The position numbers were made by a program, and so were the translations under genes. From the sequence record PP047754: a DNA stretch of 64,000 nucleotides; one strand, given 5' to 3'. A model generated the notes under the pieces. The model made no database searches. It saw only the letters and a program-made list of their open reading frames with translations, and had not been told where the DNA came from. Within the stretch, counting starts at the first letter, position 1. Each line of letters starts with the position of its first letter. This document shows, in pieces, positions 1,045 through 41,389 of this stretch. The DNA is from Escherichia phage KEP4.

Positions 1045-1051
1045 CTAAATA
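1045..1051 (+). promoter_or_regulatory. late-promoter-like box CTAAATA
   Basis: CTAAATA about 40 nt upstream of the baseplate gene start; analogue of the T4 late promoter TATAAATA. Confidence 0.4.
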
Positions 1052-1091
1052 TCTTCAACACCATATTCAAACTCAGGTGATGGAGATTATC

Positions 1092-3713: not shown

Positions 3714-4904
3714 ATGGCCGATTTCCTGAGTCAATATACAGGTCAGCAGATAGATCAGATATTGGGTTCTGTTGACGACAAAGTAAGTAAAAATGACGTT
3801 ATTAACGATTTTGAAGTTAACGACCCATTGTTTCCACCATCTGCTCGCCTGACATATGAGTTGAAAAGATCTGTTGACACAATCAATGATACTCTGGCCA
3901 ACAAAGTTATTCGTACAGATAGTGGTGAACAAACAATCAATGGCAAAAAGACTTTCAATGCGTTGTTGGTGACCAATGGGGGCATACAAGTCCCCGCCGG
4001 AAAATCCGTTTCAATCACAGATGAACCAACGAACTCGACAGATGGTGTTAACCTGAGCATGTTGAGAAAGCATGGCGTCAGTGAAGACACTACCCCGCCT
4101 GGTTCTGGTTTGGCTGGGGAGTTGTTGACATCCGGATATTACAAATTCAATTTGGATTTCACCAGATTGTCTGCGTATACCGGACCAACGTTGCCGACTT
4201 CAGTTCCTGTACAGACAGATTCTGGAGCGCGTTATTGGACAATGACTGCATTTTTTGATGCGTTGTTTGCAGACAACCGATTTAATGGATATGTGACAAC
4301 GACAGCGTATGACGCAGATATGCTGAGTCTAGAGTCTCAAATTAATAACATCAACACGTCGTTGAACGGGAAAGTCAACACCTCGACTTACAACACTAAG
4401 ATGGCGTCGTTGGATTTGAGTATCTCCAATATCAACACGTCTCTGGGTAATAAAGTCGAGGTCAGCACATATAATACGAAGATGACTTCCTTGGACGGCA
4501 GTATCAGTTCTCTCACGACTGGTAAGGTCGATGTATCAACGTATAATGCCAAAATGACCACAATTGATAACAGTTTAGGGAACGCAGTTTATCGCACAAA
4601 AACAAACTTGTCGTCATACACGGTTTCGGCTTCGGGAACGACGGCTCTTCCAGATTTTGATTTGGTGAACCTTTGTCAAATACTGGTAACTGCGCAATGG
4701 GGGACAGGTAACGTTGTTGACACATATCGAGTAACCATAACTCGTGACGGAACGATCAAATCAGAGTTGTTGGTTCAGAAAAGTACGAGTGGTACAGTGA
4801 CGTTCACAGGGTCTGTGGTGGGCGGTAAATTGAGAATTTCCGTTGTTAATGCGAATACAACAACTGCTTGTTCTGTCGATTATTCTATTGCAGCTTCTTT
4901 CTAA
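3714..4904 (+). CDS. tail fibre-like protein with tandem 27-aa repeats
   Basis: 396 aa; N-terminal KVIRTDSGEQTINGKKTFN fibre-type motif; central repeats NINTSLNGKV-TSTYNTKM-SLD. Confidence 0.6.
   Translation: MADFLSQYTGQQIDQILGSVDDKVSKNDVINDFEVNDPLFPPSARLTYELKRSVDTINDTLANKVIRTDSGEQTINGKKTFNALLVTNGGIQVPAGKSVSITDEPTNSTDGVNLSMLRKHGVSEDTTPPGSGLAGELLTSGYYKFNLDFTRLSAYTGPTLPTSVPVQTDSGARYWTMTAFFDALFADNRFNGYVTTTAYDADMLSLESQINNINTSLNGKVNTSTYNTKMASLDLSISNINTSLGNKVEVSTYNTKMTSLDGSISSLTTGKVDVSTYNAKMTTIDNSLGNAVYRTKTNLSSYTVSASGTTALPDFDLVNLCQILVTAQWGTGNVVDTYRVTITRDGTIKSELLVQKSTSGTVTFTGSVVGGKLRISVVNANTTTACSVDYSIAASF
4347..4580 (+). repeat. two full and one partial 81-bp in-frame tandem repeats inside the fibre gene
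   Basis: units start at 4347 and 4428 (aacatcaacacgtc / aatatcaacacgtc); third unit degenerate. Confidence 0.6.
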
Positions 4905-4909
4905 AACTA

Positions 4910-4946
4910 AATACCCCTAGATGACATGAATACATTTAGGGGTATT
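4910..4946 (+). promoter_or_regulatory. hairpin fused to late-promoter box (CTAAATACCCC at 4907-4917); 10-bp stem aataccccta/taggggtatt
   Basis: perfect inverted repeat 4910-4919 / 4937-4946; right-arm GGGG lies 8 nt before ATG 4951. Confidence 0.6.
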
Positions 4947-4950
4947 ACAA

Positions 4951-8124: not shown

Positions 8125-8137
8125 TATTGAATGCCTA

Positions 8138-8171
8138 AATACCCCATATTGGTCATCCTTTATGGGGTATT
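8138..8171 (+). promoter_or_regulatory. hairpin fused to late-promoter box (CTAAATA 8135-8141); 11-bp stem aataccccata/tatggggtatt
   Basis: perfect inverted repeat 8138-8148 / 8161-8171; GGGG 7 nt before ATG 8175; near-identical copy at 10726-10765. Confidence 0.65.
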
Positions 8172-8174
8172 ATC

Positions 8175-10715: not shown

Positions 10716-10730
10716 ATTGAATTGAGCCTA

Positions 10731-10765
10731 AATACCCCATATTGGCAAATCCTTTATGGGGTATT
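10731..10765 (+). promoter_or_regulatory. hairpin fused to late-promoter box (CTAAATA 10728-10734); copy of the 8138 element
   Basis: inverted repeat 10731-10741 / 10755-10765; the in-frame ATG at 10756 lies inside the right arm. Confidence 0.65.
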
Positions 10766-10770
10766 TTCAA

Positions 10771-13540: not shown

Positions 13541-13562
13541 ATACCCCTCTTCGGAGGGTATT
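13541..13562 (+). terminator. terminator-like hairpin (tacccctc-ttcg-gagggta) followed by TTT
   Basis: GC stem with ttcg tetraloop directly after stop 13536; shares the ATACCCC motif with the promoter hairpins. Confidence 0.5.
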
Positions 13563-13590
13563 TACTAGAGAAAAACAGGAGATTCTTATT

Positions 13591-22431: not shown

Positions 22432-22456
22432 CTAAATACCTTCAAAATTGAGGGTA
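22432..22456 (+). promoter_or_regulatory. late-promoter box CTAAATA plus hairpin (taccttc/gagggta) whose 3' arm GAGGG is the SD of the next gene
   Basis: same architecture as the tailspike-upstream elements; 7-bp stem with one G-U pair. Confidence 0.5.
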
Positions 22457-22461
22457 AAGTC

Positions 22462-29142: not shown

Positions 29143-29172
29143 AATTGTGTACTCTTATTTGGAGATATAAAA

Positions 29173-29706
29173 ATGGCGACAGTCAATGAGTTTCGCGCAG
29201 CCATGTCACGAGGGGGCGGCGTACAACGCCAACACCGCTGGCGTGTGACTGTAAACTTTCCTTCTTTTGTTGCTGGTTCCGACACAATTCGTGACGTGTC
29301 CTTGCTGGCTGTAACCACCAACACCCCAACAGGTCAGCTGGGCGAAATTCTGGTGCCCTGGGGTGGTCGTGAACTTCCGTTCCCAGGGGATCGTCGTTTC
29401 GAAGCGCTTCCTGTGACGTTCATTAACGTGGTGAACAACGCTCCATACAATGCTTTTGAAGTGTGGCAGCAATTCATCAACGGTAGTGAAAACAACCGCG
29501 CCAGCGCGAATCCAGATGATTATTTCCGTGATATCATCATGGAACTTCTGGACGCGAATGACAACGTGACTAAGACATGGACTTTGCAGGGTGGCTGGCC
29601 TCAAAACCTCGGCCAATTGGAACTCGATATGTCGGCAATGGACTCTTACACACAGTTCACTGTCGACTTGCGTTATTTCCAAGCCGTTTCTGACAAGTCA
29701 TTGTAA
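29173..29706 (+). CDS. tail tube protein (T4 gp19-like)
   Basis: 177 aa; C-terminal WTLQGGWPQNLGQLELD resembles T4 gp19 GLWPTNVGELQLD; GGAG SD. Confidence 0.8.
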   Translation: MATVNEFRAAMSRGGGVQRQHRWRVTVNFPSFVAGSDTIRDVSLLAVTTNTPTGQLGEILVPWGGRELPFPGDRRFEALPVTFINVVNNAPYNAFEVWQQFINGSENNRASANPDDYFRDIIMELLDANDNVTKTWTLQGGWPQNLGQLELDMSAMDSYTQFTVDLRYFQAVSDKSL

Positions 29707-29738: not shown

Positions 29739-29773
29739 TCACTAATTACAAGAAAATGTTGAGGACTTAGATC

Positions 29774-33597: not shown

Positions 33598-33647
33598 CTA
33601 CTAAGTAATTTCAACTTAACTGAATATCAATGTAAGGAACGAGCATC

Positions 33648-35104: not shown

Positions 35105-35299
35105 ATGGCAAAAGAAACTCTTAACAATGAAAACTCCAACTTTGCAGAATGGCATACCGAATTAGAGCGCGTTGCCCGTTCTCAACATGGTTCTGCCGCT
35201 GATGCAGATGCTTGGCGTGAAGATTATGAATCTGGAAAAACTCCACGTCAGGCTTGGGAAGACGAATGGGGGTGGGATGATGCCGACTCTAATCCGTAA
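35105..35299 (+). CDS. hypothetical acidic small protein (64 aa)
   Basis: ATG 35105 with AGGA SD; Trp/Asp/Glu-rich; track start 35063 is an alternative. Confidence 0.45.
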   Translation: MAKETLNNENSNFAEWHTELERVARSQHGSAADADAWREDYESGKTPRQAWEDEWGWDDADSNP

Positions 35300-35510
35300 G
35301 ATATATCTGGATAAGAACTATTTGGAATCTAAAATCGAAGTTTTCACGGCTCAAAAAATATTTGAAGACGGTGAAACGAGATATTATCTGAATCCAGACC
35401 TTTATCTCCCAGGAAGTAATTTGAATCGCGACATATCCCAAATAGATGGCACAATCATTCGTTGGGAAATAGCGACGCAAGAAGACAACTGTCACAACAT
35501 AACACTTTGA
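35277..35510 (+). CDS. hypothetical small protein (77 aa)
   Basis: ATG 35277 after GGGGGTGGG; overlaps upstream stop. Confidence 0.4.
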   Translation: MMPTLIRKIYLDKNYLESKIEVFTAQKIFEDGETRYYLNPDLYLPGSNLNRDISQIDGTIIRWEIATQEDNCHNITL

Positions 35511-35525
35511 AGAGAGAACTACATC

Positions 35526-35972
35526 ATGTCTAAACAAAATTATATCTTTATTAGTCCAGGACGTTCCCAGTTTTTTCGTAGCGACATCGATACACCTATC
35601 GAAGGTTTTCGCATTTTCAAATGCTATAAATTGGCCAGCGGTGACATTGATTATCAAAGTCACGACAATGACCGCCAAGACTTGGTTGATAACGGTTGGG
35701 AAGAAATAGATTCTCCTCAATATCTGACCGTCAACCTTTATTATATGAAGGAAAGCGGTAAATATTATTCGACTGGGGAGTTGAAAATCCGAGTTTCAGA
35801 AGCCCAATCCAATCCAGCAAAAAGTTGGTATGACACGCAAGAGTTAGTGCGTGATCTCCTGAAGAAAGGCGAACTGCCTGGCTTGGTTAAAGGTTCCCGT
35901 TTTGATACCTTCATGTCCTGTGAACAACACCCGTGCTATGTTCCGACTTTATTTAAAATCAGCAACATATGA
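35526..35972 (+). CDS. hypothetical protein (148 aa)
   Basis: ORF only; weak SD. Confidence 0.5.
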   Translation: MSKQNYIFISPGRSQFFRSDIDTPIEGFRIFKCYKLASGDIDYQSHDNDRQDLVDNGWEEIDSPQYLTVNLYYMKESGKYYSTGELKIRVSEAQSNPAKSWYDTQELVRDLLKKGELPGLVKGSRFDTFMSCEQHPCYVPTLFKISNI

Positions 35973-35983
35973 GAGATTAATAT

Positions 35984-36358
35984 ATGAGCAATTTACCACT
36001 GCTTCAAGTCGGCGATGTGTTCGTTCTCACAGAAGAAATGACCATTGAAACTCAGGTGCCTAAACATTTCTTGTATTCTAATTGCAAGGGAGATTGGCAA
36101 ACGGACTCTGGTTATATCACCCCTGAGGGATTCTTCGGTTACATGCAAGGGCATTATGTCGTTACCAAAACAGCTCTACAAGGAGGTAGCGCTGGTCACG
36201 ACCCATACCCAGACGGTCATCATGTTTGGGCACAGCATACCGAAAATGAACGCATCAGGATCTGTTTTTATCAGACAGGCAGCTTCAGAAACATGCACCG
36301 TAACGTTCCAGTAGTCGGAAAAGCCAAGGCGCAAACATGGACTTGGGAGAAATTATGA
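35984..36358 (+). CDS. hypothetical protein (124 aa)
   Basis: GAGAGA SD 7 nt upstream. Confidence 0.5.
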   Translation: MSNLPLLQVGDVFVLTEEMTIETQVPKHFLYSNCKGDWQTDSGYITPEGFFGYMQGHYVVTKTALQGGSAGHDPYPDGHHVWAQHTENERIRICFYQTGSFRNMHRNVPVVGKAKAQTWTWEKL

Positions 36359-36591
36359 GAATCAAAAAGATTGGAGCAAGCCCGTTGACGGGCACTATCT
36401 TCCAAGGTACATTGAATACCAAAACCAGTATGTGGGTAGGTGAGAAGACCGACGTGACTAACGACTGTGTAGCGGCTACGGCTGAACACATGCGCCACAT
36501 CAAGAAAGACTACTGCTTCCCTACTAAAGACGGCAAGTTTCTGGTGCTGAGCGCTGAGGTTCACGACACTCTTCCTGATCGCTTCAAATAA
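36355..36591 (+). CDS. hypothetical protein (78 aa)
   Basis: ATGA overlap with upstream stop (translational coupling). Confidence 0.45.
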   Translation: MRIKKIGASPLTGTIFQGTLNTKTSMWVGEKTDVTNDCVAATAEHMRHIKKDYCFPTKDGKFLVLSAEVHDTLPDRFK

Positions 36592-36610
36592 ATTTAAAAT
36601 TTATTCAATA

Positions 36611-36640
36611 AACGGGGTTTACTTCTTCAATAAACCCCGT
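36611..36640 (+). promoter_or_regulatory. hairpin aacggggttta-cttcttcaa-taaaccccgt
   Basis: 10-bp stem; contains the 15-mer ggggtttacttcttc also present at 55264-55278. Confidence 0.4.
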
Positions 36641-36694
36641 ATACTTCATTCCATAAGCAGCACAACACTGACTCTGAAATGAAGGAACTACATC

Positions 36695-37159
36695 ATGACA
36701 ACCGTAAAAATCTCCGTCTGGGCATTCAACAATTTCACCAAATTTGACGCGTTTGTTAAAAACGCTCTGGGCATCACCAACATAGAATCTTTCACTTCTT
36801 ATGACCGCGAAGATCAGGTCAAAATGCTTCGTCCTGAAATCGACCTTGATGCAATGCTGAACGCCATCAAGAATCACGATGACAATCTGGCTGAATTCGA
36901 AAACCTCCGCACCTCTATCTTCAAAAAGAATGGTGGCATCCGTAAGCTGAGCAACAAAACCATCAAATATGTCACCGAAGGGTTCTTTGTGGTGTTCGAC
37001 TTCATAGAAACCAAGCCGAACGAACTTCGTAAAGATTTAGACGGCAACGTTATCACCCTGAAAATGTTTGGCGAAGCCAAGGCCGATATGATGCGTGACG
37101 GCCTGTGTGATGAGACATTCACATACGACGAATATTGCGATCAGTGCCAAGATCTGTAA
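36695..37159 (+). CDS. hypothetical protein (154 aa)
   Basis: AAGGA SD 8 nt upstream. Confidence 0.5.
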   Translation: MTTVKISVWAFNNFTKFDAFVKNALGITNIESFTSYDREDQVKMLRPEIDLDAMLNAIKNHDDNLAEFENLRTSIFKKNGGIRKLSNKTIKYVTEGFFVVFDFIETKPNELRKDLDGNVITLKMFGEAKADMMRDGLCDETFTYDEYCDQCQDL

Positions 37160-37180
37160 TTTGTTCTAAACCATTTGAAC

Positions 37181-37201
37181 GGGTATGTTAAAATCATACC
37201 C
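37181..37201 (+). promoter_or_regulatory. hairpin gggtatg-ttaaaat-cataccc in the 5' leader of ORF 37228
   Basis: 7-bp perfect inverted repeat 27 nt upstream of the start. Confidence 0.4.
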
Positions 37202-37227
37202 AACCCCTACAAATAGAGGACTATAAC

Positions 37228-37545
37228 ATGGCTTGTAAAACACCAGAAATGAAATTAGTTGTTTCGTCAAAGGGGCGTCGCAGCCGCAGTCGAAATCTCA
37301 TCACCCGTTTAGATATTCTACGTCAAAAATATCAAGGTCACAGCGTGTTCACACGCATCCGTAACGCATTAAAGGAAGGGCGAATCGAGTTGGAGCTATA
37401 TCGTCCAAACGGTTCGACTCGTGCGTATCAGACCACCGACGGTTTGCTGGAACTGATCCGCCTCTCGGGAATGAGCATAGAACCTCGTTCATCAGGGACT
37501 CCCTTGTGCAGCCTGTATGTAATCGGCAATCTTGGGGCGCTGTGA
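37228..37545 (+). CDS. hypothetical basic protein (105 aa)
   Basis: AGAGGA SD; Arg-rich N-terminus (KGRRSRSRNLITR). Confidence 0.5.
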   Translation: MACKTPEMKLVVSSKGRRSRSRNLITRLDILRQKYQGHSVFTRIRNALKEGRIELELYRPNGSTRAYQTTDGLLELIRLSGMSIEPRSSGTPLCSLYVIGNLGAL

Positions 37546-37550
37546 GTTCT

Positions 37551-37973
37551 ATGAAGAAGTATATCGTTCTTATAACGGGTTCCCGTTCTATAACTGAGCG
37601 GGATAAAATCTTCGCCAAACTGGATGAACTGTTAGATCCCCACGAGATCGAAACTTTTATAGAAGGTGAAGCGGTTGGTGTGGACTTGATATCTCGTGAT
37701 TGGTGTGAAATCAATTATGTTCATGTTACACCAATGGAGATCCCTAAGAATTATCACACGATATATGGGAAAGGCGCAGGAAACCAACGTAACAAAGATA
37801 TGTTAGACAAAGCTACAACCCTGGCCAAACAAAAAGGTCTTGAGGTCTTTGGAATTGCATTATGGGATGGTTCGTCTACTGGGACGCAAGACATGATTAC
37901 CCGCATGAAAAAAGCAGGTGTCAATGTCAATATCACTCTCATGGGCAAACCCAAAACCAAACGATTGTTATAA
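37551..37973 (+). CDS. SLOG-type (DprA/LOG-like, DUF2493-like) Rossmann-fold protein, tentative
   Basis: KKYIVLITGSRS...EGEAVGVDLISRDWC pattern; 140 aa; track start 37506 is GTG. Confidence 0.4.
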   Translation: MKKYIVLITGSRSITERDKIFAKLDELLDPHEIETFIEGEAVGVDLISRDWCEINYVHVTPMEIPKNYHTIYGKGAGNQRNKDMLDKATTLAKQKGLEVFGIALWDGSSTGTQDMITRMKKAGVNVNITLMGKPKTKRLL

Positions 37974-38007
37974 ATATGTTTGCCTTCACACCCATATGGA
38001 GTTAGCT

Positions 38008-38178
38008 ATGCTGCAATTAATTTTGATTCTTTGTGTCGCTTTTACCATGTACTTTCTGGCGCGAATCAGTTATATCACACTAAATGATCTGAAAGATACA
38101 CCACGCGAACCTAAATTTATATTTCTAAAGAAATACACCAAAAAGTTCTGCGAGAATTTTATCTATCATCTTCCGTGA
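38008..38178 (+). CDS. small membrane protein (56 aa, one TM helix)
   Basis: GGAG SD 6 nt before ATG 38008; LQLILILCVAFTMYFLARISYI hydrophobic segment. Confidence 0.4.
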   Translation: MLQLILILCVAFTMYFLARISYITLNDLKDTPREPKFIFLKKYTKKFCENFIYHLP

Positions 38179-38179
38179 T

Positions 38180-38207
38180 TATAAATACCCCCAAAATTGG
38201 GGGTATT
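38180..38207 (+). promoter_or_regulatory. exact T4-type late promoter TATAAATA (38180-38187) fused to hairpin aataccccc-aaaatt-gggggtatt
   Basis: 9-bp perfect stem 38184-38192 / 38199-38207; GGGGG 6 nt before ATG 38210. Confidence 0.65.
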
Positions 38208-38209
38208 TT

Positions 38210-38938
38210 ATGAACGCACAAATCTACGATGTCCTTTCCTCTGGTAATGCATTTAGCAACCCGCTTCCGTCCCTCTCCGGTCCCTCACAGGATTTAATCA
38301 CCAGTGGTAGTACCAATATACCATTGATAACTGCCAACGCGACTCCGGAGATGCAGGCGGCTATGGTTGCTGGTGGACTAACACCAGAAAAACTCACAGC
38401 AGCCACCACCATGTATAGCGCCGCCAACACGGGGATAACGACACTGAACACATATGGAGACCAAAGTATCAATGACGCGTATTCTCGCATCGGTACTTCC
38501 GTGTCATACAAATCAGGTCTGAAGGGTATATCACGAGAGCCAAACAATTGTGATTTGATCAACAAGGCTTTTGGTGTTGTTCAGGATTTAGGACGCCAAT
38601 GGCTGAATGCTATGGAAGGTGCTCTACAGACCGTAACAAACAAGATATCGGAATTGTATGACATGATTATGGAAGGTGCCTCAGAAGGGATGGCAAAACT
38701 ACAGCAATTGGCTGCTGAAGTAACAGGACATATCAATGAGGCAATAACCGCCGTCAATGGAGTTATAAACGATATCACCGATGGGATAGCTGCAGAACTT
38801 GCTCATATTGAAAGTATGATCAAAGAATGTCTAAACTTCTCTTTTGCGAATGTTCTTGGAGAATGGGCTAAAGATCTCTGTGCTGGAGGCGTTATTGATA
38901 AAATAGGGACTCCAGAATTAAAAGAGTCCCTGAAATAA
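38210..38938 (+). CDS. hypothetical late protein (242 aa), likely virion-associated
   Basis: driven by late-promoter/hairpin element; Ala/Thr-rich N-terminus, alpha-helical C-terminus. Confidence 0.55.
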   Translation: MNAQIYDVLSSGNAFSNPLPSLSGPSQDLITSGSTNIPLITANATPEMQAAMVAGGLTPEKLTAATTMYSAANTGITTLNTYGDQSINDAYSRIGTSVSYKSGLKGISREPNNCDLINKAFGVVQDLGRQWLNAMEGALQTVTNKISELYDMIMEGASEGMAKLQQLAAEVTGHINEAITAVNGVINDITDGIAAELAHIESMIKECLNFSFANVLGEWAKDLCAGGVIDKIGTPELKESLK

Positions 38939-40614: not shown

Positions 40615-41360
40615 TGGTTTCTCTACAGGCTTTGCGCAAACTTAATGACTTTGAAAATCGTCATCATACATTTCAGCAATATTCCTTGCCGTTTAAGGAA
40701 CTGACTTGCGTAACTACCGAAAATGGTCGTCACTATGTTTCCCCCACTGGAGTCAAACTAACTTCAGTGACGACCATGTTAGGGCGTACTGGTGACCACA
40801 CATGGTTAGAAGCCTGGCGGGACAAGTTGGGGCATGAAGCTGCTGATATAGAAACACATCGTTGCGCAGACCGTGGGGAAAAACTTCATTTGGCTTGTGA
40901 GTTGTATCTCAAAAACAGACCAATGAAGGAAGTTCTGGAAGCTGCAGGGGAATACGTGTTTATGTTCAAACAGGTTTTCCCCTACCTTAACAAAATGAGC
41001 AAGATATATGCACAAGAGATTCCATTATATAGCGAAGTCCTGGGTCTTGCTGGTCGTGTTGACCTCATCGGGGTTTACGAAGGAATTCCAAGCATAATCG
41101 ATTTCAAAACATCTAACACCCTAAAAACTCGAAGCATGATAGAAGATTATAGTATTCAATTGTGTCTATACTCAGTCATGTTTCAACAAATGTTTAATGT
41201 CAAGATAGAGCGTTTAATCAATATTATATCCAACGAAAATGCCCTTGTTCCCACCATAATCGAATTCGATCGCAAAGACGTTATTTCTAAAATGTTTGAC
41301 CGTGTCCGTCTGTATCACAAAATGGACAAAGAACAGAAAGGAATCTGGGCGGATCGCTAA
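40614..41360 (+). CDS. PD-(D/E)XK-family nuclease (Cas4/RecB-like fold), tentative
   Basis: GRVDLIGVYEGIPSIIDFKTS fits the D...(I/V)DxK motif; TAATG overlap with the upstream gene. Confidence 0.45.
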   Translation: MVSLQALRKLNDFENRHHTFQQYSLPFKELTCVTTENGRHYVSPTGVKLTSVTTMLGRTGDHTWLEAWRDKLGHEAADIETHRCADRGEKLHLACELYLKNRPMKEVLEAAGEYVFMFKQVFPYLNKMSKIYAQEIPLYSEVLGLAGRVDLIGVYEGIPSIIDFKTSNTLKTRSMIEDYSIQLCLYSVMFQQMFNVKIERLINIISNENALVPTIIEFDRKDVISKMFDRVRLYHKMDKEQKGIWADR

Positions 41361-41363
41361 ATA
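41357..41363 (+). promoter_or_regulatory. late-promoter-like box CTAAATA overlapping the upstream stop codon
   Basis: 27 nt upstream of uvsW ATG 41390; GGGGG 9 nt before the ATG. Confidence 0.35.
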
Positions 41364-41389
41364 CTCCATAATATTGGGGGAAATTAGTG

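Follow-up and report, generated by a model that had tools for sequence, protein, structure and literature searches.

The gene for a 242-aa protein of the DUF7217 family is directly preceded by a short element in which a late-promoter-like box and the Shine-Dalgarno sequence of the gene are tied together by a perfect hairpin, and this feature is real, conserved, and selected. The interpretation that we favor, at a probability of about 0.55, is drawn by analogy with the gating known from T4 genes such as e and soc, in which only transcripts initiated at the embedded late promoter would be translated. The activity of the promoter and the position of +1 are assumed from T4, and we infer read-in of transcription from upstream; the ORFs at 35105-38178 are co-directional, and no strong terminator was called between 35010 and 38180.

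The element lies in a window of 64 kb (the whole stretch of DNA analysed here, 64,000 nucleotides), in a region that has ~99% identity to Kuttervirus phages (Ackermannviridae, ViI-like) such as ISTP3, SE14, and SFP10. The gene order runs from the major capsid gene through a run of small ORFs, an ORF with a YAcAr/SLOG domain (37506-37973), and a 55-aa membrane-type ORF with a predicted transmembrane segment (38008-38178, plus strand, phrog_4845) to the DUF7217 gene (38210-38938, plus strand, 242 aa), which is followed by a convergent minus-strand DUF7424 gene, a gp3-like tail-completion gene, uvsY, an exonuclease gene, and uvsW. This order around the 242-aa ORF is kept in all ten metagenomic relatives, with protein identity down to 47%, and small ORFs of 55-65 aa orthologous to the 55-aa ORF have been called at eight of the ten metagenomic loci.

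On the plus strand, positions 38180-38212 read tataaatacc cccaaaattg ggggtatttt atg. The box TATAAATA (38180-38187), with its conserved core TAAATA at 38182-38187, resembles the -10 element of a late promoter and shares its last 5 nt with the 5′ arm of the hairpin (38183-38193). Next to it, CCCCC at 38188-38192 forms the anti-Shine-Dalgarno strand at predicted positions -5 to -1, and the predicted late transcription start, derived from T4 geometry, is the A at 38193, 6 nt past the box. The 3′ arm (38198-38208) carries the Shine-Dalgarno GGGGG (38199-38203) and then TATTTT, with 6 nt to the ATG. The preliminary description had placed the octamer and the inverted repeat within 38180-38207 and the ATG of the 242-aa ORF at 38210, both of which agree with the sequence, and had reported a perfect 9-bp hairpin before the gene; the hairpin is indeed perfect, but its length was undercounted, since the arm AAATACCCCC (38183-38192) pairs with the arm GGGGGTATTT (38199-38208) over 10 perfect bp, or 11 bp with an AAAT loop if A38193:T38198 is counted. 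Only 1 nt separates the end of the stem from the ATG, and on the other side 4 nt separate the stop codon of the 55-aa ORF (TGA, 38176-38178) from the first paired base. Folded as RNA, 38150-38240 reaches -22.7 kcal/mol (z = -3.8), a stability that none of 200 shuffled sequences attained, and the short form of the hairpin folds at -17.8 kcal/mol (z = -4.3). An Rfam scan of the whole 64-kb window matched no RNA family.

Comparison of 17 orthologous lineages, aligned without gaps and anchored on the invariant TAAATAC and GTATT, provided 13 stem pairs for analysis. Both anchors are unchanged in all 17 lineages although the flanking DNA is merely ~50-70% identical, and the base before TAAATAC is A, T, or C; CBA120-type Kutterviruses carry TTAAATA at this site, and other genera carry TTTAAATA or CCTAAATA. 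Changes on both sides have occurred in 6 of the 13 pairs, and 91% of the cells in the alignment are paired, compared with 37-53% for controls in which the partner was slid; the observed values were reached in none of 500 shuffles. The inner pairs covary from CCCC/GGGG to CTCC/GGAG, CCCTCC/GGAGGG, or CCCCTGA/TCAGGGG. On this comparative evidence the pairing of the hairpin is under selection. In every case the 3′ arm is a G-rich Shine-Dalgarno (e.g., GGGG, GGAG, GGAGGG) located 6-9 nt from the ATG, and no Shine-Dalgarno outside the 3′ arm was present at the module sites inspected, which comprised the DUF7217 lineages and the sister modules described below. The base at the predicted start is a purine in 15 of the 17 lineages.

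The degree to which such a hairpin would bury the ribosome-binding site can be expressed as an opening cost, i.e., the predicted energy needed to free positions -14 to +3, computed both for read-through RNA and for late RNA that starts 6 nt past the box. For DUF7217 the predicted cost is 21.1 kcal/mol on the read-through RNA and 3.9 kcal/mol on the late-start RNA, and the mean at 32 other gene starts is 7.2 +/- 3.3 kcal/mol. All seven of the most occluded among 37 gene starts have TAAATA preceded by A, C, or T at 15-50 nt upstream (hypergeometric P = 1.7e-4; Mann-Whitney p = 0.005). The box overlaps the 5′ arm, and given the assumed T4 spacing, the start at A38193 falls past that arm. The mean unpaired probability of the Shine-Dalgarno had also been tried as a measure; it proved to be a poor discriminator because the G-run takes weak alternative partners in late RNA, and was replaced by the opening energy. 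In the late RNA model the G-run is still partly paired, with a probability of being unpaired of about 0.2-0.4.

Simple counts of the box do not distinguish it from chance. In 64 kb, TATAAATA occurs twice (2.4 expected) and the bare 7-mer YTAAATA 19 times (18.6 expected), so that the signal lies only in position and context. The combined motif TAAATACC is found 6 times against 1.7 expected, a number reached in 0 of 100 shuffles, and the window contains 10 perfect hairpins of 10 bp or more, compared with 0.65 expected in Markov-simulated sequence; four of these ten have TAAATA in the 5′ arm. CTAAATA recurs 15-50 nt 5′ of the genes for gp6-like, VriC, sheath, gp22, tailspikes 1-3, gp14-like, and uvsW, and is the phage's own late motif. 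The preliminary description had attached meaning to the verbatim match with the T4 octamer, which turned out to be a red herring, as the phage has its own motif and the preceding base varies among lineages; judged by these sequences, the exact octamer at 38180 is an accidental variant of N-TAAATA. CTAATTA precedes the tube (29150-29173) and portal (29740-29773) genes, and CTAAGTA precedes the capsid gene (33600-33647), which are possible weaker or variant late boxes 5′ of the most abundant proteins.

In T4-related phages, gp55-dependent promoters consist of an 8-bp TATA-like box (TATAAATA) without a -35 element before structural genes (PMC2988020), an organization that the present element shares. 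The TATA box of T4 is located at -13 to -6, about one helical turn before the start, and for Aeromonas phage Aeh1 a gp55-type consensus (a/g)CTAAATA, with (a/g)C at -13/-12, is recognised (PMC2988020). ViI-like phages encode gp55, gp33, and gp45, of which gp55 and gp33 have been reported for CBA120, ViI, and AG3, and their late promoter had still not been identified as of 2011 (PMC3184105); homologues of gp45, gp44, and gp62 are annotated in the syntenic region of phage Mutine. We found no mapped late promoters, RNA 5′ ends, or RNA-seq time course in the literature on Ackermannviridae/Kuttervirus, and the early-promoter motif TTCAAT-N14-TATAAT has no copy between 29.6 and 41.1 kb of the window. 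T4 late promoters are AT-rich just downstream of the box (PMC2988020), and unlike them the DUF7217 element has CCCCC at 38188-38192. At the hairpin-free promoters of the window the 5 nt past the box are TCTTC, TCTCT, TCTTT, TAGAA, and CTGAA, and the highly expressed sheath and gp22 genes have the box with an AT-rich and unpaired leader. Since the discriminator is CCCCC instead of the AT-rich segment of T4, the DUF7217 promoter would be a weak one at best.

A regulatory motif “CTAAATAcCcc” has been reported for ViI-like phages, as quoted in the EspM4VN paper (PMC7283392), and is the same element as the one before DUF7217. In EspM4VN, one copy (98591-98601) lies 34 nt before the DUF7217 gene (98625) and another, at 101772, precedes uvsW. 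The passages of that paper which deal with the motif give it bare, mentioning neither a pairing of cCcc with the Shine-Dalgarno nor a hairpin (PMC7283392).

The same design recurs before seven genes of the window, namely DUF7217, tailspikes 1-3, gp14-like, gp6-like, and uvsW. The preliminary description had recognized the module of the tailspike genes in the DUF7217 element and a further copy at 22432 before the gp14-like gene, and both observations were borne out: the copies at 4907, 8135, 10728, and 22432 each consist of C or T followed by TAAATACC and GGGGTA, with an ATG after 6-9 nt. These plus-strand modules belong to tailspike gene 1 (4907-4950, ATG 4951), tailspike gene 2 (8135-8174, ATG 8175), tailspike gene 3 (10728-10770, ATG 10771), and the gp14-like neck gene (22432-22461, ATG 22462; anti-Shine-Dalgarno CCTTC, Shine-Dalgarno GAGGG), and their predicted opening costs fall from read-through to late RNA from 19.7 to 6.3, 19.5 to 6.1, 17.3 to 5.6, and 13.4 to 4.4 kcal/mol, respectively. 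The cassettes of tailspikes 2 and 3 (8131-8174 and 10724-10770) are ~90% identical, including the “loop,” which is an extended stem (AUAUUGG..CCUUUAU) with a variable tip of 4-5 nt, and their sequence is also found before different tailspike genes in other genera (L116, L133, and others; Klebsiella, Dickeya). A related hairpin at 13541-13564, ATACCCCTC-ttcg-GAGGGTAT, precedes tailspike gene 4 (ATG 13591); it has no plus-strand TAAATA and is followed by a separate AGGAG Shine-Dalgarno. The minus-strand match to TAAATACC at 13557 is its palindrome read backwards, and this hairpin has the appearance of a relative of the cassette that is a terminator only.

The gp6-like and uvsW starts, which showed the two highest opening costs among the controls, have the same architecture in different sequences. 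At the uvsW gene (41357-41389, plus strand; opening cost 15.0 to 4.2 kcal/mol), CTAAATA is followed by the anti-Shine-Dalgarno CTCCA, the Shine-Dalgarno TGGGGG, and GTG/ATG, with Shine-Dalgarno and start codon alike buried in a double helix (-16.2 kcal/mol, z = -4.0); Klebsiella- and Dickeya-type genera have retained the element. At the gp6-like baseplate gene (1045-1091, plus strand; 16.6 to 10.5 kcal/mol), CTAAATA is combined with the anti-Shine-Dalgarno TCTTC and the Shine-Dalgarno GGAGA, with GGCUA pairing across the AUG (-19.4 kcal/mol, z = -4.1). In both cases the 5 nt behind CTAAATA, at predicted positions -5 to -1, pair with the Shine-Dalgarno, the start codon lies inside the outer helix, and no U-run follows. 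Late-only expression of uvsW matters in T4, and because uvsW must be late-only there, the uvsW element is the cleanest candidate for early-versus-late gating.

Taken as T4 e/soc-type gating, the DUF7217 cassette would combine a gp55-type late promoter (N-TAAATA) and the Shine-Dalgarno GGGGG with a hairpin that ties the two together, in that CCCCC between the TATA box and the start, along with the last bases of the box, is complementary to the Shine-Dalgarno and its flank. RNA from an upstream promoter would carry both arms and form a hairpin of about -18 kcal/mol that buries the ribosome-binding site, and DUF7217 would be poorly translated from such read-through RNA, part of which may terminate at the U-run behind the hairpin. 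RNA begun at the embedded promoter, at the predicted A38193, would be free of the 5′ arm, and its 17-nt leader would be open and translated. The predicted outcome is that DUF7217 protein would be made only while the late transcription machinery is active.

The precedent for this scheme is found in T4 e (lysozyme), soc, 49, and I-TevI, where a hairpin that covers the ribosome-binding site keeps early read-through RNA from being translated, and transcripts from a late promoter situated in the 5′ strand of this hairpin escape the block (PMC3014915). The DUF7217 element has in common with these genes a late TATA box in the 5′ strand, a Shine-Dalgarno in the helix, a predicted late start inside the hairpin such that late RNA would be without the inhibitory strand, and a structure conserved among relatives. 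It differs in belonging to Ackermannviridae and in its N-TAAATA or CTAAATA box and GC-rich discriminator. Furthermore, unlike the T4 examples, it is a stereotyped cassette that is used again and again, before at least seven genes, and whose anti-Shine-Dalgarno falls exactly on predicted positions -5 to -1, and most of the cassette genes lie downstream of structural rather than early genes.

The second and only other TATAAATA of the window (37969-37976) overlaps the stop of the YAcAr/SLOG ORF and sits 32 nt before the ATG (38008) of the 55-aa ORF, and N-TAAATA is found at the equivalent place in 8 of the 17 lineages; going by this sequence, the 55-aa ORF may be late as well, and if so, the early-versus-late rationale would vanish at the DUF7217 locus. 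Moreover, the upstream stop codon is so close to the stem (4 nt) that ribosomes terminating there would open the hairpin, which could result in coupled rather than blocked translation.

An unlikely alternative holds that the hairpin is a plain Rho-independent terminator of the block 35105-38178, with TAAATA as the A-rich mirror of the U-run in a bidirectional terminator and its likeness to a promoter devoid of function. As in intrinsic terminators, a GC-rich stem with a 4-6 nt loop precedes a U-rich run, here TATTTTAT, which has 6 T in 8 counted from the last G-C pair, near the 6-7 of 8 at clear terminators of the window (34989, 28634, and 22163). The site is annotated “terminator” in phages Mutine, Maynard, Magnus, and May, and the TATTTT run after the stem is retained in 16 of 17 lineages, so that the sequence of this locus would suit a terminator equally well. 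An A-tract, however, does not need an exact TAAATAC across 17 lineages, and a consensus terminator scan left the DUF7217 site uncalled. The element further differs from intrinsic terminators in that its 3′ arm doubles as the Shine-Dalgarno of the next gene and that an invariant promoter-like hexamer flanks it on the 5′ side. The sister copies also speak against this reading, as their U-runs are poor (TATTACAA, TATTATCA, TAAAGTCA) or, at uvsW and gp6-like, missing, and the gp14-like module follows a divergent minus-strand gene and no co-directional one. In addition, the upstream stop codon is just 4 nt from the stem, and ribosomes that come this close normally hinder termination.

The exact cassette was also searched for in IMG/VR, a scan used only as a control for ATG distance, with all counts referring to the matches listed. 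Among these, exact TAAATACCCC..GGGGTATT was followed by an ATG within 8 nt, i.e., at Shine-Dalgarno distance, in 27 of 27 matches in Ackermannviridae contigs, one of these matches being the palindrome read on the reverse strand, compared with 35 of 112 in other viral contigs; exact-cassette matches occur in many unrelated contigs at about chance level. Such a constant distance to a start codon is not what a plain terminator would call for. A terminator role and late-only gating can nevertheless coexist.

Proximity of the upstream stop codon raises another alternative, that the hairpin serves translational coupling on a polycistronic late RNA, with a ribosome ending at the UGA (38176-38178) melting the 5′ arm and freeing the Shine-Dalgarno, so that the output of DUF7217 would be proportional to that of the 55-aa protein. 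Between this stop and the stem there are 4 nt, in all lineages the distance from the stop to N-TAAATA is 0-6 nt, the gap at tailspike 1 is 5 nt, and the possible late promoter at 37969 would place both genes on a single late RNA. We nonetheless regard coupling as improbable, and among the modules only this one and that of tailspike 1 would allow it: tailspikes 2 and 3 have 13-14 nt between the upstream stop and the stem, the gp14-like module has no upstream co-directional ORF, lineage L154 lacks the small ORF and still has the module, and the invariance of TAAATA is left unexplained.

Composite terminator/promoter cassettes of the PeSL type, known from T4-type phages, in which an early sigma-70 promoter beside a stem-loop flanks accessory genes in hyperplastic regions (PMC2839356, PMC4122927), are likewise short, repeated, and conserved intergenic cassettes of stem-loop and promoter at the boundaries of exchangeable genes, and differ from the present element in that the latter has its promoter, a late one, within the stem, which also holds the Shine-Dalgarno. 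That the cassette (~45 nt) is mainly a joint of this kind for module swapping by homologous recombination is highly improbable: the near-identical copies at tailspikes 2 and 3, the same sequences before unrelated tailspike genes in Klebsiella, Dickeya, and other genera, the resumption of SE14 homology exactly at 10722 (start of the tailspike 3 module) and again at 13545 (hairpin before tailspike 4), and the PeSL precedent in T4-type phages (PMC2839356, PMC4122927) are in its favor, but the DUF7217 locus is syntenic and unswapped in every lineage examined, variable tailspike C-termini next to conserved N-termini likewise account for the block edges, and the covariation indicates selection on RNA pairing, beyond DNA identity.

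The product of the gene, to which the late-only gating would apply, is a protein of 242 aa, 25.5 kDa, and pI 4.5, and its residues 1-242 match positions 1-238 of the Pfam profile PF23854 (DUF7217) with E = 1.9e-101 and 339 bits against a cut-off of 29. The AlphaFold2 model is an all-helical bundle (mean pLDDT 79.4, pTM 0.74), and structure comparison of this model yielded no informative structural neighbor. The preliminary description had suggested a late gene for a virion or morphogenesis component, and mass spectrometry of virions from two relatives supports this. In Dickeya phage LIMEstone1, ORF129 was detected by virion MS/MS as an “unknown structural protein” of 25.03 kDa, with two peptides and 18% coverage (PMC3296691). 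We take ORF129 to be the DUF7217 orthologue because its mass matches the 25.02 kDa computed for the orthologue of lineage L028, which lies two genes from gp3 = ORF127. In Salmonella phage Sajous1, gp166 gave 8 spectra from CsCl-purified virions, equal to the 8 spectra of gp168, the neighboring tail-completion protein (PMC10892097), and the identity of gp166 as the DUF7217 orthologue was checked in the sequence record. The “ferrojan horse operon” of Sajous1 (gp214-217; PMC10892097) had been considered as containing the DUF7217 gene, and the record shows it to be a different locus. DUF7217 is thus a conserved minor (low-copy) virion protein, and the motif and the presence of the protein in virions together support the gene being late. 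Full-length homologues with ~29% identity are present in Felixounaviruses and Erwinia phages, some of them labelled “putative membrane protein,” and in phage wV8 (L165) the homologue (3947-4708) lies between a tRNA cluster and the terminase gene terL.

Several aspects of the annotation of this locus deserve mention. In the RefSeq record of SE14 (NC_049512; L002 38459-39034) the gene starts at an internal ATG and measures 576 nt instead of 729 nt, and in the metagenomic gene call P0015 the start is too far upstream, so that the hairpin is translated as “MIPKYPHHPWGYFL.” The profile phrog_289 (“GTP-binding domain,” 500 positions) matches three adjacent ORFs of 37506-38938 serially with its positions 7-146, 133-207, and 259-500; it was probably built around a fused or mis-called protein, and it has given the YAcAr ORF its “GTP-binding domain” label in RefSeq records. 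Within the last codons of the DUF7217 ORF there is another hairpin of 8 bp (38905-38931, AGGGACTC..GAGTCCCT), which on the minus strand is followed by ATTTTAT and comes directly after the stop codon of the convergent DUF7424 gene, and is likely a terminator embedded in the coding sequence.

The principle of a hairpin that gates translation according to the promoter used is already known from T4, and for Ackermannviridae the accounts quoted above had noted only the bare motif. A broader proposal, which we put forward tentatively, is that the element is a portable “late-only” cassette of the Ackermannviridae in which the promoter discriminator acts as the anti-Shine-Dalgarno, and that it is also an insulator of tailspike genes and a joint for their exchange between genera. 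If this were true, promoter choice would be hard-wired to translatability in a class of genes for low-copy virion proteins and late enzymes (tailspikes, neck, baseplate, uvsW, and DUF7217), and the cassette would be a late-gene counterpart of PeSLs with a translational function added. The “cCcc” half of the published CTAAATAcCcc motif would gain an explanation in its pairing with the Shine-Dalgarno. For annotation, the finding is a warning against treating such hairpins as simple terminators, and it puts the gene start at the ATG immediately behind the hairpin, where several public records shorten or lengthen the ORF; it also draws attention to DUF7217 as a minor virion protein that is conserved and shared with Felixounaviruses. 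ViI-like phages are widely used in the biocontrol of Salmonella, E. coli O157, and Dickeya, and where tailspikes are swapped for host-range engineering the cassette would be the natural unit to leave intact. For the family as a whole, it offers a testable rule for how ViI-like phages may confine the expression of tailspikes and low-copy virion genes to the late period.
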